IMG/VR virus record: IMGVR_UViG_3300018915_000002
Direction: 5' to 3' (one strand)
DNA: 64,000 nt
Origin: a virus
A program made the position numbers and the translations under genes. Under the pieces are notes generated by a model. It searched no databases. It saw only the letters and a list, made by a program, of their open reading frames with translations, and was not told the origin of the DNA. This document shows positions 5,460 through 47,635 of this stretch, one piece after another (the first letter of the stretch is position 1; every line of letters begins with the position of its first letter).

Positions 5460-7748
5460 TCACGGAGTTCCGTGGTTGACTGGAATCCCAGTGAAGGAGA
5501 CTCCTCCCATTCCTGGTTCCCGCAAGGCAATTAGCGCGGTAATATCAGCAAAGCTTGCTGCATGGAAATAGTGATCTGGCGCTCCAGGTGGTTCTATCCA
5601 GCCATCAGGTAGCCTGTCTGATGTGAGGAAGTGGTGCAAGAGATTTCCGTTATCTTTGGGGCTATAGGTTGTATGGGCAGGAAAATGCATCTTACGGCGA
5701 TAGACGCGATCGCGAACGGTGTCGAGTCCGTGTGTTCTATCGAGTAGGTACACAGGCACCAGATCTTCCTTTCCCTTCACCCGTGAGGAATTCTTGGTGC
5801 TTTTCACCTTCCTTAGAGTCCTACGCCACTGTTCTCCTTTGAGCTTTATCTGGTCGAACAGTAGTACCTGGAAGCGATGCCCAACCTTAACCTGACCTGG
5901 CTCCCAGAATTCATCTTCTAAGACAAACTCCACTTCTCCCGGTAGCTTCTCTTTGAAGAATTTATCTAAATCCCGGACATTCCAAGACTGGGTGGAGCGC
6001 GGGAAAATTGTGTATTCAGCGAGGTAGGCGTCAGTCGGGAGATCTCCCCTGCCGTGCTGTATGAACTTGGCAGTTGCCCAACCGTACCGTTCAAGGTATG
6101 GTTCAAAGATGGGGATGGCTTTGCGGTTGTTTACCTTAGCCAAGCAATATTGGGAATAGAGTGGGCGCTGACCCGGAAGATGCCCCAGAGCGAACTCGAC
6201 AGCGGTGTTGAACTCTGGCTCATTATCTAGCCCGATCGCATCAATCTTGAACTGCCGAGCTAGGCTTTCTAATTCATCAAAGTCTCCAATCTCTCGCCAA
6301 TCAAGTACCTCGGCATGACCGTCTGCCCAACTCAATTCCTTGTCTTGGTTATTGGCATAGTAAAATCCAATTGTGATCATCCAGTTGCTGTAGCGCCCTT
6401 GGTCAATACCAGCGACGACAATATCAGGTTTGCGTTCAAAGGGGACAGGTAAGCCCACACAGCCTTGGAGTTGAGATAAGGCAATCTTTCCTCCACCGAG
6501 ACTAATTGCCTTGCCGAGCATTTCTTGTATCCCCAATGCTGGCTTCTTAGTAGTCCACATGAACCGGATGCGTTCTACCGGATCAAATGTCCAGCTTGCG
6601 AGTTTTGGCAGGTGCATGGCGACTGTCTCGCGCACAGGTTCTTGATTCTCTAGTGCGTAGCGATTCAGTTCTACTAAAGTGATTCCTGTATTGGAGCAGA
6701 CAAACGCCCCTGCATCAAACGTCTCTTTCTCTAACTCAATTTCGCATTCTTGGCAGCCAACGTATGCCGTTGCGATCGCTTCATCCTTAGCATGGTCTTG
6801 TAGCTGCCAGTCATTTATCCCTGGAGGGTTATCTGAATAGTGGAACCACTTCAGTGGCCGCCCCATTCGATCCACATACCGTATTTCACTGATTCCATCC
6901 TCAGTTACCTCTACAGGCTTAAGGAAGTTGCCGAAAGCATCTAGGAATTGGACGCAGTTGCAGGTAGGGCAAACAATCTGCCACTGAAATATGTACTTTG
7001 CCTTGCGTACTTCGACATCAACCGTTCCACCTTCCATCGCTGGGGTGCTGCCTGCTCTCGTTGGCTTAGTGGGCCACCGAGACTGTCCGAATCGGGGGGC
7101 AAGCGCATCTAGGATTCCGGGCGCACATAATCCCCACTCGTCAACACAGGCAACACGGGTGGTGAATGAACGAATCTTGGAAGCCGATTGTTCATCATCC
7201 TTTGAGGATTGGACTTTTGCGGGAAAAAGCTCTAGGGGTACTCCTGCGATACTGATACTTTTCTTCGCATCAGAGTCCTGGCGCTTATAAACCCGCTGGC
7301 TCTCTCTTGAAAGCTCCTTGAGTGGCTCACACTTATCAAACGCCAACTGGATGCGATCTGTTGACATCTTCAACAGTTTGTCTTGGGATTCAAACCCAAG
7401 GGCAATAGGCGATCGCGCATAACCTAAGCAGAACGCGCACATAGCCACCAAGACCTCGGAAAACCCCAATTGTGCGGGTTTGCTGATTACGACCTTCTCC
7501 AGCCACAGGTTGCCAAATGTAAGGGCAAACTGATAGAAGAACGGTTCATCCCAACTGAGTTTATCCCCTGTATGGGTTAGGTAATGCTGATCCACCCACC
7601 AGATAAACAGCTCTCCACCCTTTGCGTACCACTCCTTGACGGCTGAATCACGCTGAAAGGCGGATTCCTCAATGAATTTATCACTCTCGCTTTTGTTGCT
7701 GCCCCGCGCATTCTCGGCGGATTTGATAACGGCACTGACCTTAAACAT
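5460..7748 (-). CDS. terL: Terminase large subunit, lambda gpA family
   Basis: KPAQLGFSE (Walker A-like), CVDEW (Walker B), GSTP, CPTC/CQEC Zn knuckles, AGIDQG nuclease motif, DHYFHA. Confidence 0.85.
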   Translation of the reverse strand: MFKVSAVIKSAENARGSNKSESDKFIEESAFQRDSAVKEWYAKGGELFIWWVDQHYLTHTGDKLSWDEPFFYQFALTFGNLWLEKVVISKPAQLGFSEVLVAMCAFCLGYARSPIALGFESQDKLLKMSTDRIQLAFDKCEPLKELSRESQRVYKRQDSDAKKSISIAGVPLELFPAKVQSSKDDEQSASKIRSFTTRVACVDEWGLCAPGILDALAPRFGQSRWPTKPTRAGSTPAMEGGTVDVEVRKAKYIFQWQIVCPTCNCVQFLDAFGNFLKPVEVTEDGISEIRYVDRMGRPLKWFHYSDNPPGINDWQLQDHAKDEAIATAYVGCQECEIELEKETFDAGAFVCSNTGITLVELNRYALENQEPVRETVAMHLPKLASWTFDPVERIRFMWTTKKPALGIQEMLGKAISLGGGKIALSQLQGCVGLPVPFERKPDIVVAGIDQGRYSNWMITIGFYYANNQDKELSWADGHAEVLDWREIGDFDELESLARQFKIDAIGLDNEPEFNTAVEFALGHLPGQRPLYSQYCLAKVNNRKAIPIFEPYLERYGWATAKFIQHGRGDLPTDAYLAEYTIFPRSTQSWNVRDLDKFFKEKLPGEVEFVLEDEFWEPGQVKVGHRFQVLLFDQIKLKGEQWRRTLRKVKSTKNSSRVKGKEDLVPVYLLDRTHGLDTVRDRVYRRKMHFPAHTTYSPKDNGNLLHHFLTSDRLPDGWIEPPGAPDHYFHAASFADITALIALREPGMGGVSFTGIPVNHGTP

Positions 7749-36540: not shown

Positions 36541-37236
36541 TCAAGGGCGGTAATGCGCGATCGCACCTTCTAACTGATCTATCAGTCTTTCTCGTACCCC
36601 ACTTTGGCTGAGTATCTTGCAATTCTTCCCGTATTGGATGACTTCTCGGATGAACCAGAAAGTGCTAGTGATTTGACGAGTGATGACTTTGGTTTTCTTG
36701 TCCCAGTAATCTAGGCGATCATTCGGTTGCAGGACGTAGGCATGTGCTAGCCAGCCGTAAAGCTCAAACTGTACAGGTAGAACTTCCAGCCCCTCCCTCC
36801 AGGTTGCTGAGTCTAATGGCACAACAGCAGAATCCTCCTCAGGAATACGATCAATCCGTAGGCTCCAGTTGTGCTGAAGTCCTGGGATGTCTTGGTTGTT
36901 TTCAGTCTGGTCGCACCAGCATTCCAGGTAATGCCGTTTTTCTCGATATACAACCTCGGCATACCGAGCGGTGAAGGTGAAAAATCGCCCTGCTGCGTCA
37001 ACGTAGCTGAGGTGGAAGGGGACTTTGTTTGTAATCAGTTCAAGGATTTCCGTCGCTCTCTTGTTGTTTAAGTCAGCAGGCTTGCTAACCTGCACCTCTC
37101 GGTAGGCGATCGCTTTATACAATGCCGTCTGATTCCCTCGATCTCCCCAGTTGAATCCCTGTTCCTGTGCGATCAATTCAAACTGTTGTTGTTCCTGTTC
37201 GGTGACATTTAGCTGTACGGTGTTGCGCTTGCTCAT
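36541..37236 (-). CDS. WYL-domain transcriptional regulator
   Basis: FHLSYVDAAG, YLECWCDQTE, HNWSLRIDRI, FWFIREVIQYG..C.ILS...VR (WCX). Confidence 0.85.
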   Translation of the reverse strand: MSKRNTVQLNVTEQEQQQFELIAQEQGFNWGDRGNQTALYKAIAYREVQVSKPADLNNKRATEILELITNKVPFHLSYVDAAGRFFTFTARYAEVVYREKRHYLECWCDQTENNQDIPGLQHNWSLRIDRIPEEDSAVVPLDSATWREGLEVLPVQFELYGWLAHAYVLQPNDRLDYWDKKTKVITRQITSTFWFIREVIQYGKNCKILSQSGVRERLIDQLEGAIAHYRP

Positions 37237-37296: not shown

Positions 37297-38058
37297 ATGA
37301 ACCCACAAAAGGAACGAATGCTTTGTTTGTTCGATAAGGATGGAACGCTGGTTGAAACCAAGTCTGGGAAACCGTTTCCTAAGCTTGGCGATCAGCGACT
37401 GATTCCCGGTGTCAAGGAACGAATTAGTGCCTTGGCTTTGACTGGCAGCATCATTGCCGTCACCAGCAACCAAGCTGGCATTGAGAAGGGGTATAAGAGC
37501 TTGGAGGATGCGATCGCAGAGTTTCAAGAACTGATGCAGTTATTACCCGAAGTCTCGGCTTGCTATTTTTGCCCCAATTTCTCTGGAAGCAAATGCTTCT
37601 ACGTTAATAAGGAAGGGCGAGTTGTAGCTGTCCACGAACAGTGGAAAAAGTACAGTGATTTGATCGGTCGCTTCAGGAAACCCAATCCAGGGATGCTTTT
37701 GTTGGCTATCGAACACGAACTATGGACATCTATGCTTGGGCAAAGGAAGCCGAACAAAGATGTCGCTTGCTACACAGGCGATCGCCCAGAGGATGAAAGG
37801 GCAGCCTATTTGGCTGATGTGCCATATCAGCACGTCACTGATTGGCTGCTAGATCACAACATGACGCACGGAGGAGATTGGAATTATCAAATTCTGGTGA
37901 CAACCCCTGAGTATGTCAGGGTGAAGACTTATGTCTATGCCCTCAATCAAATTGAAGCCATCGACTTCGCCAAACGCAATGCTTCTGCTCTGCTTAATTC
38001 AGGACAGGAGCTTGAGGATTTAAGCGAGTGGAAGACTGAATTTCTGAAGATGCCGTAA
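37297..38058 (+). CDS. HAD-IIIA phosphatase (GmhB / polynucleotide 3'-phosphatase-like)
   Basis: FDKDGTL, SNQAG, RKPNPGML, GDRPEDE.AA..A. Confidence 0.85.
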   Translation: MNPQKERMLCLFDKDGTLVETKSGKPFPKLGDQRLIPGVKERISALALTGSIIAVTSNQAGIEKGYKSLEDAIAEFQELMQLLPEVSACYFCPNFSGSKCFYVNKEGRVVAVHEQWKKYSDLIGRFRKPNPGMLLLAIEHELWTSMLGQRKPNKDVACYTGDRPEDERAAYLADVPYQHVTDWLLDHNMTHGGDWNYQILVTTPEYVRVKTYVYALNQIEAIDFAKRNASALLNSGQELEDLSEWKTEFLKMP

Positions 38059-38978: not shown

Positions 38979-39044
38979 TCACACATTTATGTGAAAAGCC
39001 TCGGTATTTTACCGAGGCTTTTTCTGTATCTACAAGGAGAAATC

Positions 39045-40721
39045 ATGATTGAGAAGTATCAATCAGCCCAGATAATTCCAAGCATCATCCAAACTTCTAA
39101 CGGCGACTATGCCCTACTGCTCTGGGACAAGGCAGTGGATCAAGACATTGTCACGGCTATCGAGCAGGGTCACACACTCGGCAACTACTGTTTGATTGGG
39201 GTTAGCGAAACGCCTTATGGCCCACTTTCTTGGATGTTATCTGCCATCGGTACAGTGGAGGAGTTCGCTGACCCTAATTCCACCCTGTTCTGGTTTGACT
39301 ATATTGTTAATCCAGGAAAAATCACCAGCTACGAGAAGCGCTGGTTCAAGATATTGAGCAAGCAATCTTCCCTGAGTCTTGGCATCCCATTAGGGACAAA
39401 AATTCGCCCCAACGGACTGATCTCTGACCGCACACTGGCGACATACCTTGAAGGCATCAACCACGCGATCGCTCATTGGCATATTGGCTGCGACTATGCC
39501 GCCGCTGTGGAGTGGCTCTGGAAGAATGAACTGGATGAACTCGTCAATGAAGCGATGCGAGAAATTCCCCAGAAGTACGGAAACCGCAATGGACAGGAAG
39601 TATTGGTTGATTGCTTAGGGCAAGCCGCCACTACTGTTTTAGATTCGGCTCATCCCCTGTGCCAGATTTATGAGCAGGGGCAGTTAGGGACGTATCTCCA
39701 AGCGTGGAAAAAGACAATTTCATTGAGTGATCTTAAAGAGCGATCGCAAGACCCAGCAGAAAACCTCAAACGAGACTGGCTTTTTGCCTCCACCTGCTTG
39801 ACCAAAAGTGAAAATCCCCTCAAGATTGCCGTGGGGTCTATCAATGGAACATGGATCTGGGCAGACTTTCCTTACAAGAGTAGTCGCCCAGAGTCCCTCT
39901 ATCTCCTGAGTAAGACTTACCGCTATTTGTTGGGGCATAACTTCAAGCCTTTGCTACATCGCAATGATGCTCTACTAAATCATCTTGAGCTTCCTGCCGT
40001 CGCCTCTTTAGGCAAAATACCCCAGCGCTCTTCCTTTGATCAAGTTGGCCGCATTCTCCAGGGAGCCATTCTTGACCGTGAGTTCGCCCTCCTTCAGCCA
40101 ACAGCAATCCTCGTAGGCAAACGGGGACTAGAAGAGGTTGAATATCACCCATTGACTAGGGGTGGTGTTTCCTGCCTCTTCAAGGTCAGGTTGATGGCAG
40201 ACTCTAATCGTGGGACGAATCTAGTCCTCGTTGGAAAACTGAACGCGGCTTCAGGAGTAATAGAAGCAATTGGGATAAAGGAAACTCCTGAGGTTAAGTT
40301 GATTTTGTTCCTCGTTGCGATAGCCTACCGAGATATCTTGGTTGCTCGGAATGCCGCAACTGTCCCAAGTAAGGGACGTGAAGGGAAGGGTAAATCCCCT
40401 CGTCGTTCACTAAGTCCCCCTGTGAAACTTGTGGCTCGTGTCAAGCAGTCCAGGACACAGATCCAGGAAACTTTTGCTGACCCACAGCAGTTGGTGCAGT
40501 CCTTACGAAAGTACAGCAGCTATCTACGGTCATGCCACCTGCGCCGTCTTCACGAAGGCTGGAATGCTTCTGAAAAGGCACTAAAGGTTGCTGAGCAATA
40601 TCAGTGGCTTGTTCCAGAAGGATTCACATTCGTGAAGCCAGCCATAGTTGAGGGGGATAGCGAGTTTAAGCTCAGGGAAGAATTCAAGTCCATATCCTTG
40701 ATGGATTTGCTATTTGGTTGA
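39045..40721 (+). CDS. Large hypothetical phage protein
   Basis: AAGGAG ribosome-binding site; C-terminal HLRRL..GW.AS...A...VPEGFTFVKP. Confidence 0.75.
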   Translation: MIEKYQSAQIIPSIIQTSNGDYALLLWDKAVDQDIVTAIEQGHTLGNYCLIGVSETPYGPLSWMLSAIGTVEEFADPNSTLFWFDYIVNPGKITSYEKRWFKILSKQSSLSLGIPLGTKIRPNGLISDRTLATYLEGINHAIAHWHIGCDYAAAVEWLWKNELDELVNEAMREIPQKYGNRNGQEVLVDCLGQAATTVLDSAHPLCQIYEQGQLGTYLQAWKKTISLSDLKERSQDPAENLKRDWLFASTCLTKSENPLKIAVGSINGTWIWADFPYKSSRPESLYLLSKTYRYLLGHNFKPLLHRNDALLNHLELPAVASLGKIPQRSSFDQVGRILQGAILDREFALLQPTAILVGKRGLEEVEYHPLTRGGVSCLFKVRLMADSNRGTNLVLVGKLNAASGVIEAIGIKETPEVKLILFLVAIAYRDILVARNAATVPSKGREGKGKSPRRSLSPPVKLVARVKQSRTQIQETFADPQQLVQSLRKYSSYLRSCHLRRLHEGWNASEKALKVAEQYQWLVPEGFTFVKPAIVEGDSEFKLREEFKSISLMDLLFG

Positions 40722-40809
40722 ATGTTCCGCAGTGGATTTAAACTTAGATCCACTGCGTTTCTTCTGTCCACTTCGCTTTAAACTTAAAGAGCCTTGGCTC
40801 GAACCGAAA

Positions 40810-41883
40810 ATGATGGACTTCATGCCCCACGGGGCTTGCTATCTCTGGGACGGAAAAATCATACTACTACACGTAGTTAGTGATGCTGGCATTGCTTTAG
40901 CGTATTTGTGCCTTCCGTTACTGCTTTGGCACTTTTCCCGGAAACGCAAAGACATCCCGTTTTCCTGGCTCTTCGCCATGTTTGGTGCATTTATTCTGAG
41001 TTGCGGCTCAACGCATCTTATGGGTATTTGGACATTGTGGCATCCCAGTTATTTGGCGGATGGATTACTCAAATTGGCGACAGCGGTAATCAGCCTAATG
41101 ACTGCGATCGCCCTTTTCACCCATCTGCCTGAGGTAATTGCCCTACCCTCTCCCTCTCAGATGTCCGAAAAGGAGCAACAACTGGAGGCGGCTTTGAAGA
41201 AGGAGCGGGAAATTAATGAATTTCGTCGGCGTATTGTCTCTACAGTGGCGCATGAGTATCGAACCCCACTAACGTCTATCCTCTCCTCTGCTGAACTGGT
41301 AGAGCGCTATCCAACTGGCAAGCGCTCAGTCCAGCACTTTGAAAATATTAGGAGAAAAATCACCTACCTTTCCAAGCTAATTGATGATGCCCTGATTCTA
41401 GATAAAGCTGAATCCGGGAGGTTGGAATTTCAACCTACTGAAATCGACGCAATTTCATGGTGTAGCGAGGTTCTTGCGGAATTAGATTGGGGAAAGCACA
41501 CGTTGCAGCTCAGTGCATTAGATGAGGCAGTAGGCTTATTCGATTTACGACTACTCAATGCCCTAGTTACCAATCTGGTGTACAACGCTTGTAAGTATTC
41601 CGATCCGGAATCTATTGTTTATGTTCGGCTACAAAGGGGTAACGAATCATTTATTTTGGAAGTTGAAGATCAGGGGATTGGCATTCCACTTGAGGATATT
41701 CCCCGCATTTTTGAATCTTACTTTCGAGCAGCCAATGTTGATTCTGCCCCTGGCACTGGTGTTGGACTTTCTATTGTGCAAGGATGTGTTAATCTCCACG
41801 ACGGCACTATCTCTGTTGTGAGCGAAGTGGGAGTTGGTACAACCTTTCGGGTTGTTTTGCCCCTGCGCCACGGAACTCCGTGA
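40810..41883 (+). CDS. Sensor histidine kinase with ethylene-receptor-type (ETR1-like) transmembrane domain
   Basis: FMPHGACYLW, SDAGIALAY, FILSCGSTHLM; HisKA HEYRTPL; HATPase NACKYS, DQGIGIP, GTGVGL, GTTF. Confidence 0.88.
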   Translation: MMDFMPHGACYLWDGKIILLHVVSDAGIALAYLCLPLLLWHFSRKRKDIPFSWLFAMFGAFILSCGSTHLMGIWTLWHPSYLADGLLKLATAVISLMTAIALFTHLPEVIALPSPSQMSEKEQQLEAALKKEREINEFRRRIVSTVAHEYRTPLTSILSSAELVERYPTGKRSVQHFENIRRKITYLSKLIDDALILDKAESGRLEFQPTEIDAISWCSEVLAELDWGKHTLQLSALDEAVGLFDLRLLNALVTNLVYNACKYSDPESIVYVRLQRGNESFILEVEDQGIGIPLEDIPRIFESYFRAANVDSAPGTGVGLSIVQGCVNLHDGTISVVSEVGVGTTFRVVLPLRHGTP

Positions 41884-43257: not shown

Positions 43258-43710
43258 TTATTGGAAGTATTCCTCAACTTCCTTAATGAATGCAGCCTTA
43301 TTGGCTGCGAATTCTCGTCCAATCTTCTCGAAATTAACGTTTTGTGTTGACATCGAGGTGAGATTTTGTGCTGCTGAAAGGCAAGCGGGTTTCCCTACTT
43401 TCTCAAGCGCTTCGCACACAAGTGGGTTGTAGTAGTGGTATTCGTTGACTACCCATGTCGGATAGCCGTTCCCACTGATTTGCCCGTAGAAAGCCTTCAG
43501 CATATAGGCGTTCCGCTCTGCTTCAGGCAGAGTCTTAAAAAACTCGACCTCTCTGACCCGCCAAGGGGTCTTAATCTTAGTCGGCGAAAGCTTCTCTTCT
43601 CTCCTCGCCGTCTCCCAAAACATCTGCCACTTCTCAGTAGCTACTTGAGCAAGATTCCAGAAATTGGAATCCTCTGTGAATCGGGACACAGAGATTGTTT
43701 GTGTTTTCAT
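43258..43710 (-). CDS. Hypothetical protein
   Basis: 150 aa. Confidence 0.6.
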   Translation of the reverse strand: MKTQTISVSRFTEDSNFWNLAQVATEKWQMFWETARREEKLSPTKIKTPWRVREVEFFKTLPEAERNAYMLKAFYGQISGNGYPTWVVNEYHYYNPLVCEALEKVGKPACLSAAQNLTSMSTQNVNFEKIGREFAANKAAFIKEVEEYFQ

Positions 43711-44994: not shown

Positions 44995-45067
44995 CCTAGT
45001 TCCTAATTAACAAAGCCGTCCCGGCGCATTATATGCATCGGAGCGGCTTTTTGTTTTGGGATTTTAT

Positions 45068-47635
45068 ATGGTTTCCTTAGAAAAACTCGCCCGTCCAGAT
45101 TTCGCTGAAGGCAGATTTACAGACCTCAATGAAGGTCGAATAATGGGAGGACTCCCAGCCGAGATCACCTCGCTCAATGATCCAGAAAAGCTTGGTCGTA
45201 TCCAGGTCTGTTGCCCACTTATTGACGACACTGCAAACCTGCCAAACGGGGATGACGGTTGGATTCAAGCGATCGAGCTGTTTACGAATAACGCCACCCC
45301 CGGTGGTAGTCATCGTCTCCTGCACGTCGGTAGCCAAGTAATTTTACTACCTATACTAGGTCATCCCAACCAAATGATATTGCTGGGGTGTATCCCAAAT
45401 CGAATTGATCGCCCCTCTCCAGAAGTTGATCGCGCAGAAGGTCTCTACGGTCACCATACCCAGAATGGGGTTTTCAAAATTCGCAATGACAAGGAGCAGT
45501 CAGAAATCAATGCCTTTCCGCACGGTGTTACCCAACACGTTTCCGGCGGTGGAGATATTACGCAGCAGACTAAAGAGGGTGCGAAGGTTCAACTCAAATC
45601 TGACGGCACTGTTAGAAATGAAAATCCAAAAAGTTCAACGACACTCGCCCCAGATGGAACAGTTGAAACGAGGAACGCCGCCTCCGGCACCAGTGTGCTG
45701 ACCAAGGACGGGAACTGGGAAATTAAATCCAAGAACCAAGCCTCCCTCAAACTGAACGATGGCGATGCCGTGATGGAAGGTCCCAAGTCTCAACTTTCCT
45801 CCCTCGTCTCCGGACTCAAGCAAAAACTCGCCGGTACACTGGGACAGGGTGAATCTCTTGTGCGCCAAATCGAAGGACTCAAAGATTCGATTGGCAGCAT
45901 GAGTATAGAGAATTTATTGACCGAGTTACCCGATGCGATCGCCTCTGTAGACTCGATCATCAAATCATTCCCCGATGTACTCGATACCCTCGACGAAATC
46001 AAGAAGTTTCCTGTCGAGGAATTGGGCGACTCTCTGATGGGACAGGCTACCCAGTTCCTTGATGCGGGATTAGGAGGCATTATCCCTGTGATCCAGGAGG
46101 TATTATCCAGTCCCGGTGGCATCGAGGAGAAGGTTAGTGAACTGGTAGAAAACTTAGGCTATACAGGGTCTGTACAAGAGCTTCGCGACATCTTAACCGG
46201 ACTAGACGGGATGCCCGATATCCAAATACAAGCAATATCAAGCCTTGTAGCGCCTGGAGGCTTTGAAGCATCGAAGAATATATTTGGTCTGGGCTTAGAG
46301 TCTACACTGTCTAAACTAGATCTAAACCTGAGCTATACAGGCTCTGTACAGGGTCTAAACGAGACCTCTACGAATACCTCTATTCAAGGTCTAATACAGG
46401 GGTTGACAAGTACTGGTCAAGATCTAGTGCAGGGCTATACAGGCTCTGTACAGGATCTAAACCTAGCAACTGTTGCCAATACATTGAATAAACTTGGTCT
46501 CTCGCTCGACAAAGATGATCTGAACCTCGCCGCGATACTCAACCCAACCTTCACACCCAACCCCACTACACAGTCGGGCAATATCGCCTCGCTTGCCACG
46601 GAGTTCCGTGGCGCTCAACAATTCCTGAACCAGTTGATTGAGCAGGAAATCCCCAGTCTCCTACCTGCACCCCTCAAGGATCTGTTTAGCAATGACGATG
46701 TGATGAACATTGTCCAACTAGCCCTAATCGGTGGGAACCCGATGGGAATGTTGCTGGGTCAATCCGCTTCAAAGCTGATTGGGGATTTAGCGCCAACGCT
46801 ATTAGAAGGAGTAGGGCTGGGAGGTGCGATCGCGCCCGTCCAGCAGTTGCTCGGTTCTCTCCAATCCGGAAACCTGGAAGGTGTAGGAAGCATCATCGAC
46901 ACGATCATCCCTGGTCTAGATCTTGATAAGGTCTTGTCAGGTGGTGTACAGGGGATTGTAGAGAATGTATTGCCCGATGCTCTTGGTGGAATAACGGGAG
47001 CATTGGGTGGACTCTTCGGCGGCGGAAAGAAGAAGGCTAACTTAGCGTTCAATGCGCTGAATGGGGCTGCCAAAGGTGGAACGATTCGCGCTACCAAAGA
47101 TAAGGTAGAAGCCGTAGCTGATTCCGCCCTGCCCACCGCAAAAATGGTGATCACTCGAAGTAAAGCCGCCCTTGTTGCTCAGACTGGACTCGCCGAGGTC
47201 TTCGCTGGTGGTGCAACAGCCGGGGTCTCAACTCCTTATGGTAGTTTTGGGTTTGGAGCAGGTGGCGGTAGCCTATTTAGTAAGGGTGCGATGGCGATGC
47301 GGATTGCCCAAGATATTGGTAAATCTGCGGGTCTGGTGCTACATCCAAAGTCAGGCGTTTCCTTGGCGAGTTTTGCTGACAGTGATTTTGATCCAGATAA
47401 ATCAGACGACTGGGATAGGAAAACCGCTGAGGTGACGATTGATGAGGGGAACGTGTACATCGCCTCTCATGGTAGTGACCATGATGGGATTGCTGTTACT
47501 CCGAATGGCGTTTACCTGGAAGGGTGGCACATTCGGGAATTGGTTAACAGGCTTTCTAGCCTAGAGACTTCCTTTGCTGGATTGTCTGTTCAGTCTGTAG
47601 TTGATGATATGGTGGGAGGTGCAATTTTGCCTTAG
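45068..47635 (+). CDS. Baseplate spike protein (gp5/GpV/VgrG OB-fold plus beta-helix) with long helical insertion
   Basis: NDPEKLGRIQV..P...W...LHVGSQV...GHP...LLG; repeated xxDGxVx beta-helix units. Confidence 0.7.
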   Translation: MVSLEKLARPDFAEGRFTDLNEGRIMGGLPAEITSLNDPEKLGRIQVCCPLIDDTANLPNGDDGWIQAIELFTNNATPGGSHRLLHVGSQVILLPILGHPNQMILLGCIPNRIDRPSPEVDRAEGLYGHHTQNGVFKIRNDKEQSEINAFPHGVTQHVSGGGDITQQTKEGAKVQLKSDGTVRNENPKSSTTLAPDGTVETRNAASGTSVLTKDGNWEIKSKNQASLKLNDGDAVMEGPKSQLSSLVSGLKQKLAGTLGQGESLVRQIEGLKDSIGSMSIENLLTELPDAIASVDSIIKSFPDVLDTLDEIKKFPVEELGDSLMGQATQFLDAGLGGIIPVIQEVLSSPGGIEEKVSELVENLGYTGSVQELRDILTGLDGMPDIQIQAISSLVAPGGFEASKNIFGLGLESTLSKLDLNLSYTGSVQGLNETSTNTSIQGLIQGLTSTGQDLVQGYTGSVQDLNLATVANTLNKLGLSLDKDDLNLAAILNPTFTPNPTTQSGNIASLATEFRGAQQFLNQLIEQEIPSLLPAPLKDLFSNDDVMNIVQLALIGGNPMGMLLGQSASKLIGDLAPTLLEGVGLGGAIAPVQQLLGSLQSGNLEGVGSIIDTIIPGLDLDKVLSGGVQGIVENVLPDALGGITGALGGLFGGGKKKANLAFNALNGAAKGGTIRATKDKVEAVADSALPTAKMVITRSKAALVAQTGLAEVFAGGATAGVSTPYGSFGFGAGGGSLFSKGAMAMRIAQDIGKSAGLVLHPKSGVSLASFADSDFDPDKSDDWDRKTAEVTIDEGNVYIASHGSDHDGIAVTPNGVYLEGWHIRELVNRLSSLETSFAGLSVQSVVDDMVGGAILP

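Follow-up and report, generated by a model that had tools for sequence, protein, structure and literature searches.

An ethylene-receptor-type histidine kinase encoded by a giant cyanobacterial phage

The 64-kb stretch of viral DNA analysed here (the window) carries, at 40810..41883 on the plus strand, a gene for a histidine kinase of 357 residues (P0001) whose sensor is an ethylene-binding domain (EBD) of the type found in the receptor ETR1. The gene is complete with its stop codon, as read from the open frame, its translation and the Pfam domains of the product. The carrier DNA is a giant cyanobacterial phage. By sequence and architecture the protein is unexceptional within a family that is well known in bacteria; what is new is that it belongs to a conserved, selected, phage-specific clade, and that some of the phages concerned encode their own response regulator together with the kinase. 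On balance we lean towards reading the protein as a working phage sensor kinase, in which an ETR1-type copper(I) site would perceive an ethylene-like ligand and the signal would pass to a CheY-like regulator.

The kinase gene and its product

Gene callers placed the start of the frame at TTG 40714 or GTG 40732, giving proteins of 389 or 383 residues, respectively. The start is better placed at ATG 40810, because in the alignment the N-terminus lies 3–4 residues ahead of a PHG motif in all phage homologues, and because a hairpin lies between this ATG and the stop of the upstream open reading frame at 40721. Throughout, residue 1 is the ATG at 40810, and D25, Y32, C65 and H69 are then numbered as in ETR1. 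The hairpin, found by scanning, is terminator-like (40728..40757, plus strand), with a 13-bp stem followed by a T-rich tail, TTTCTTCT, and an RNA fold z-score of -2.7. The promoter scan revealed no sigma-70-type promoter directly 5′ of the kinase gene. In the same region the 10-nt word TTTAAACTTA occurs at 40737–40746, in the loop region of the hairpin, and again at 40777–40786, ending 24 nt before the kinase ATG, where TAAACT could be a -10 element. With these two local copies and no others in the window, the word was ruled out as a phage-wide motif.

At its 3′ end the gene runs into a 14-bp copy of the phage-wide palindrome, CACGGAACTCCGTG (41869..41882, plus strand, read directly), which supplies the codons for the C-terminal HGTP and reaches into the stop codon. 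A single copy of HIP1 (GCGATCGC), located in the course of the window-wide HIP1 count, lies inside the gene at 41104..41111 (plus strand), and the GC content of the gene is 0.471 vs. 0.469 for the window. The initial annotation had regarded the gene as assimilated into the phage, and the HIP1 copy, the palindrome at the stop codon and the matching base composition bear this out.

Three Pfam domains follow one another in the protein, in the order ETR1_N, HisKA and HATPase_c. The first, an ethylene-binding-type transmembrane sensor at residues 17–112 (40858..41145, plus strand; PF25487), was matched with 123.8 bits against a cut-off of 27 (E = 3.5e-36), over profile positions 2–97 of 97. The equivalents of D25, Y32, P36, I62, C65, H69 and K91 of ETR1 are all kept, an equivalence which rests on the Pfam profile, the identical numbering and published descriptions; the sensor motifs quoted in the initial annotation, which had called the protein an ethylene-receptor-type kinase retaining D25, Y32, C65 and H69, read as written. 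D25 is encoded at 40882–40884, C65 at 41002–41004, H69 at 41014–41016 and K88, the counterpart of ETR1 K91, at 41071–41073. Across alignments of 14 and 40 homologues D25, Y32, I62, C65, H69 and K88 are invariant, with D25, C65 and H69 present in all phage copies. P36 is nearly invariant across the 40 homologues (the related phage L001 has Ser there), and the position of ETR1 I35 is occupied by Leu in the window protein. Y32 reportedly belongs to the ETR1 ethylene-binding residue set as described by Wang and colleagues in 2006. The roles of D25, C65, H69 and K91 have been published (PMC10266040, PMC6586836): C65 and H69 coordinate copper(I), D25 contributes to copper and ethylene affinity, and K91 couples the binding site to helix 3 (PMC10266040), while I35, P36 and I62 are among the residues essential for ethylene binding by ETR1 (PMC6586836).

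The HisKA dimerisation/phospho-acceptor domain (PF00512, E = 1.6e-12) covers residues 139–203 (41224..41418, plus strand) and contains the H-box HEYRTPL, in which H148 (codon 41251–41253) is invariant in both alignments. It is followed by the HATPase_c catalytic domain (PF02518, E = 1.1e-26) at residues 247–353 (41548..41868, plus strand). The ATP-binding boxes N259, D287-x-G289-x-G291, F301 and G317-x-G319 are all present; N259 and G317-x-G319 are invariant across the two alignments and D287-x-G289-x-G291 nearly so. Between sensor and kinase Pfam found no GAF or PAS domain even at E up to 1, in agreement with the direct fusion described at the outset.

An AlphaFold2 model, built from the 40-sequence alignment (mean pLDDT 86), predicts three transmembrane helices at residues 15–45, 52–77 and 81–111, a block with pLDDT 88–96, then a brief break at a conserved LPSP motif and one long helix, residues 115–165, bearing H148. 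The linker from TM3 to the H-box is modelled as a single helix of about 35 residues, and because helix 115–165 is continuous in the model, the sensor seems to be joined to the kinase by one helix with no domain between them. The cytoplasmic part of the model matches active histidine kinases, and the best Foldseek matches are the cytoplasmic cores of YycG and HK853. Sequence and fold searches of the PDB returned matches to the cytoplasmic kinase core only (VicK-like, YycG and HK853) and no solved EBD structure. The NCBIfam matches were likewise sub-threshold and confined to the kinase core. The best of these was a model of a sensor kinase for the biosynthesis of scytonemin, a sunscreen of soil-crust cyanobacteria; the match (residues 91–353) spans the kinase core only and, at 192 bits against a cut-off of 865, is far below membership.

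Residue conservation suggests that the phage protein may bind copper and ethylene. Since a few substituted EBDs, e.g. D25N, bind ethylene poorly (PMC10266040), such conservation is no guarantee of affinity. It is therefore pertinent to consider that the domain might instead sense copper(I) availability, redox state or some other small ligand, with the kinase reporting the metal or oxidative status of the host. The conserved residues are copper ligands first of all (PMC10266040) and constitute the only link to ethylene; in addition, the P6-H7-G8-x-C10 motif before TM1 is invariant in bacterial and phage EBDs, and the EBDs of other IMG/VR contigs have very different outputs attached, or none at all. 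On the other hand, all EBDs keeping these residues that have been tested so far, namely ETR1, SynEtr1 and AzoEtr1, bind ethylene saturably (PMC11819568, PMC10266040), and K88, which is tied to signal output and not to copper binding, is also invariant. We consider this alternative unlikely. The longer form of the N-terminal motif, P-H-G-x-C-x-L-W (residues 6–13, window 40825–40848), lies ahead of TM1 and is invariant or nearly so throughout the aligned EBD proteins of bacteria and phages, in which it might provide an additional metal ligand or a contact within the dimer.

The carrier, its relatives and the paired regulator

A protein search located the identical protein on a contig of 242,772 bp. 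The window itself encodes a terminase large subunit at 5460–7748 (GpA_ATPase, 37.1 bits vs. the Pfam cut-off of 25.6, together with PHROG terminase matches), as well as a ribonucleotide reductase, a replication initiator, a sigma factor and an endolysin-like protein, all of phage type, and a Sak4/AAA_24 recombinase gene lies directly 3′ of the kinase. A baseplate-spike match at 45056–47635 is weak and under the Pfam cut-off, and no tRNA genes were found in the window. The palindrome CACGGA-NN-TCCGTG occurs there in 28 copies against 0 expected, and HIP1 in 85 copies against 0.65 expected, an abundance which indicates a cyanobacterial host. Taken with the position of homologues of the kinase about 2 kb from portal genes, the terminase and the size of the contig uphold the original assignment of this DNA to a phage and not to a host chromosome. 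We found no near-identical DNA among cultured-phage records, no close protein relatives in the IMG/VR search and, in 185,579 GTDB species genomes, no prophage copy that would name a host (best full-length match, 36%). A separate observation concerns a gene 1.4 kb downstream of the kinase (43258–43710, minus strand), whose product is DMP19-like (PF14300, 27.2 bits, just over the cut-off); the DMP19 of Neisseria is a DNA-mimic protein.

The kinase belongs to a sharply bounded group of phage proteins. Five near relatives were found at 64–70% identity in the protein search, followed by a fall to 42% or less, and the window protein has about 42% identity with its nearest counterpart from cells. The clade is distributed over three phage lineages, represented by the window phage, by L001–L003 with L005, and by L004 with L121–L123. 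Phylogeny, proposed as a check in the initial annotation, returned the phage copies as a monophyletic, phage-only clade with 100% support, both in the EBD tree and in the kinase-core tree. In L001–L003 and L005 a Phage_portal gene follows about 2 kb downstream of the kinase, and in L005 the frame of the kinase is intact although the gene call is truncated. Between lineages synonymous differences are saturated, at 0.77–0.88 per site, with non-synonymous differences of about 0.2 per site, and in the comparison of L001 with L005, the closest pair, dN/dS is 0.07 overall and lowest, at 0.044, in the EBD. The saturation of synonymous sites combined with low dN/dS therefore indicates that purifying selection has maintained the gene while its phage carriers diverged over a long period.

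These results bear directly on the question of whether the gene is a mere passenger, either captured recently from a host or situated on a host chromosome or plasmid misread as phage, and without a role in infection. The carrier's own genes were read within the 64-kb window of the 242,772-bp contig, the window contains TnpB/IS605 transposase genes, and in L001 and L005 the kinase has beside it a T5orf172/MUG113 gene, of a kind typical of mobile cassettes. Such an explanation is nevertheless very improbable in view of the terminase and the phage-wide palindrome in the window, the portal gene near the homologues, and the fact that parts of the same phage were assembled independently from other samples. 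It is further opposed by the limited identity of cellular proteins and the lack of any copy in the species genomes searched, as well as by the phage-only clade with its three diverged lineages, saturated synonymous sites and low dN/dS. At L001:8851-9897 and L005:8638-9696, the T5orf172/MUG113 gene precedes the kinase on the opposite strand. Genes of this type are frequent in mobile or homing cassettes, and this neighbour hints that the kinase may move between positions in phage genomes as a cassette.

The lineage of L004, L121 (74 kb), L122 and L123, contigs which also have the phage palindrome, revealed the genetic setting in which the kinase is paired with a regulator. Their neighbourhood is collinear with that of the window, with the common order of a PG-binding, lysin-like gene, a WYL regulator gene, a PNK3P phosphatase gene, small genes and the kinase. 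Two genes of the window serve as syntenic anchors: the divergent WYL-type regulator at 36541–37236 (minus strand), with 70% protein identity to L004, and the PNK3P/HAD phosphatase at 37297–38058 (plus strand; PNK3P match), with 51%. In all four contigs, which derive from three samples, a gene for a single-domain CheY-like regulator of 126–146 residues is located 27 bp upstream of the kinase, and its product, which lacks an output domain, has a full Response_reg domain (87.6 bits). Close homologues of the L004-type regulator (87–98% identical) are confined to this sister lineage, with none on the 242,772-bp contig, and no regulator gene lies beside the kinase in the L001/L005 lineage.

Within the 64-kb window no receiver domain was detected, either by tblastn with the regulator of a related phage or by a custom receiver HMM applied to six frames with filters off. 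Synteny comparison showed that the slot in which the relatives have the regulator is occupied in the window by an unrelated viral gene for a protein of 576 residues (38991..40721, plus strand). This open reading frame was considered as a hidden receiver or partner and ruled out as a regulator, having no receiver signal, no Pfam or PHROG match and ESM Atlas neighbours that are viral hypothetical proteins. It ends in its own terminator-like hairpin, and 14% of its top Atlas cluster carry AcrVA2-like (PF26125), a weak lead. The system is thus a two-component pair of which the window phage is without the partner at that position. The early finding of a window devoid of response regulators was accordingly correct, and the designation "orphan" is apt for the locus of the window phage; for the family it does not hold, given the regulator 27 bp upstream in the sister phages.

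Cellular relatives, other viral EBDs and known systems

The best whole-protein matches in cells are the EBD-PAS-kinases P0008–P0010, which are found in ordinary chromosomal contexts, and in the kinase-core tree the phage core nests among PAS-kinases. Between P0008 and the phage protein the sensors are 49% and the kinases 42% identical; the PAS segment of P0008 is missing from the phage protein. DHp helix 1, which holds most partner-specificity residues, is nearly identical in the two, with the common motif HEYRTPLT-x-ILSSAE. The phage protein looks to be derived, with loss of the PAS domain, from cellular EBD-PAS-kinases of which AzoEtr1 is an example. The minimal EBD-HisKA-HATPase layout is also frequent in bacterial chromosomes, in proteins of 353–399 residues (Dulcicalothrix, Calothrix, Leptolyngbya and others), so the fusion without GAF or PAS is in itself no unusual feature. 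Proteins with the same three domains include P0036 of Dulcicalothrix desertica, P0030 of Calothrix sp., P0047 of Leptolyngbya sp. and one on the soil contig L008. These cellular minimal kinases are, however, only 33–38% identical to the phage protein, have the H-box SHDLKAPL vs. HEYRTPL in the phage, and possess a longer coiled-coil linker. Because they are distant in these respects, and because the phage core nests with PAS-kinases, the minimal layout of the phage protein probably arose separately, by independent PAS loss. As to partners among the cellular minimal kinases, L007 is an orphan, while in L008 the kinase is followed by a single-domain regulator.

The likeness of DHp helix 1 to that of P0008, together with the loss of the PAS domain of the cellular relatives and with the lack of an adjoining partner gene in the window phage and in the L001/L005 lineage, would also suit a kinase that acts as a decoy or phosphatase in a host EBD-kinase pathway. 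Such a protein would drain phosphate from the host regulator or form mixed dimers with EBD kinases of the host, silencing or locking a behavioural response of the host independently of any ligand. We judge this to be quite unlikely, since conservation is as strict at the sensor-site residues as in the kinase boxes and the EBD has the lowest dN/dS, which argues that the sensing function itself is under selection; moreover, the sister phages encode their own regulator.

To place the clade among viruses, we turned to the survey of phage genomes suggested in the initial annotation. INPHARED phage records contain no EBD; they contain many kinase cores, all at most 32% identical, and several of these records resemble unfiltered host DNA. 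A pattern scan of IMG/VR with an EBD alignment returned seven contigs out of 2.9 million, and in 7/7 the ETR1_N domain was confirmed by Pfam. The EBD is joined to an HWE kinase in L089 (279-kb contig), to STAS in L095 (91 kb, terminal repeats) and to an unassigned C-terminal region in L093 (64 kb, terminal repeats), whereas in L090 (54 kb), L091 (350 kb), L092 (24 kb) and L094 (36 kb) it stands alone, in proteins of 139–269 residues without obvious output. The two contigs with terminal repeats have a CheckV completeness of 100%. None of the seven is related to the window phage or HIP1-rich, there were no matches to the Pfam Phage_portal and HK97 capsid families on them, and their viral status is that given by the IMG/VR and CheckV labels only. 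Two HIP1-rich IMG/VR contigs, L009 (101 kb) and L082 (68 kb), share their sample of origin (3300036939) with L001 and encode histidine kinases without an EBD, with 37% and 28% identity to the kinase core; one of these adjoins a receiver gene.

A full-text literature search found no report of an EBD in a phage. Reviews deal with histidine kinases of viruses and phages in general and with the possibility that viruses have carried hormone receptors from one eukaryote to another. The virus and phage histidine kinases of Hargreaves et al. 2014 and Delaroque et al. 2001, as they are cited in PMC6324907, have other sensor domains, and none is reported there with an ethylene-binding domain.

Among the characterised systems, AzoEtr1 of Azospirillum brasilense is an EBD-PAS-kinase of 525 residues encoded next to AzoRR-etr1, a regulator of 135 residues with no output domain, and the system controls biofilm and root colonisation (PMC11819568). 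Like the phage protein, AzoEtr1 has an N-terminal three-helix EBD with the binding residues, followed by HisKA/HATPase, and as in the sister phages L004 and L121–L123 a single-domain regulator is encoded beside the kinase. Its layout is that of P0008–P0010, P0008 also having 525 residues. The phage protein differs in having no PAS domain and in being phage-encoded, and in the window phage the neighbouring regulator is absent. In the system of SynEtr1 (Slr1212), Slr1213 and csiR1 of Synechocystis PCC 6803, surface properties and phototaxis are under kinase-dependent control by SynEtr1 (PMC11819568, PMC7700396). The cyanobacterial setting and the combination of an EBD with histidine-kinase signalling are shared with the phage protein, as would be phosphotransfer to a response regulator. 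In contrast, SynEtr1 is a long, bifunctional receptor for light and ethylene with a photosensory region, whereas the phage protein is minimal, and the regulator of SynEtr1 is a transcription factor, whereas that of the phage relatives has no DNA-binding domain. With Arabidopsis ETR1 the phage protein has in common the ETR1_N domain, the seven equivalent residues listed above and the three transmembrane helices; unlike ETR1, it has neither a GAF nor a receiver domain, and it carries the N-terminal PHG-x-C motif. ETR1 signals through CTR1, largely without kinase activity (PMC10266040, PMC6586836).

Proposed mechanism and significance

We propose that during infection the kinase would insert into the host membrane via its three transmembrane helices, which would form an ETR1-type copper(I)-dependent site from C65, H69 and D25; K88 would couple this site to helix 3. 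The most likely occupant of the site would be ethylene or another small unsaturated molecule resembling it. From TM3 the signal would run through the LPSP hinge and residues 115–165 to the H-box as one continuous helix, and occupancy would alter autophosphorylation of H148. Ethylene lowers the kinase activity of ETR1 and, by indirect evidence, that of SynEtr1 likewise. The phosphoryl group would then pass from H148 to a single-domain CheY-like response regulator. The window phage may have lost or replaced this regulator at the upstream position, and because it is gone from that slot, the partner would be either a regulator of the host, which is more likely, or one encoded elsewhere in the 243-kb genome. 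A host regulator appears to be the most economical candidate, and it fits with the near-identity of DHp helix 1 to its counterpart in the closest cellular EBD-PAS-kinases. If SynEtr1 and AzoEtr1 are a guide, the output would likely be a change in host surface properties, motility or biofilm, or in the timing of phage genes.

A more far-reaching reading, which we offer only tentatively, is that one lineage of giant cyanophages reads ambient ethylene directly and thereby resets host motility or biofilm or the timing of infection, with or without a CheY-like partner of its own. In this tentative scheme ambient ethylene might serve, e.g., as an indicator of the action of sunlight on organic matter or of plants or microbes active nearby. 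The plant-derived cue and the link to the choice between lysis and lysogeny, both of which had been suggested for this kinase, found no support in our data, and no prophage copy was present in the species genomes.

If ambient ethylene is indeed what these phages sense, the kinase would be the first ethylene receptor known to be encoded by a virus, and environmental sensing by phages would gain a new class. Peptide and quorum signals are already known to be perceived by phages, and a phage membrane receptor for a gas or metal cue would widen the range of what viruses can sense. The case is unusually testable, since assays for the domain are established (ethylene-binding measurements in yeast on the first ~130 residues, C65 and D25 mutants, and copper titration) and the likely phospho-partner is known from the sister phages. 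The ethylene-binding domain is usually discussed as having passed from cyanobacteria to plants; the phage clade adds a viral branch to its evolutionary history.
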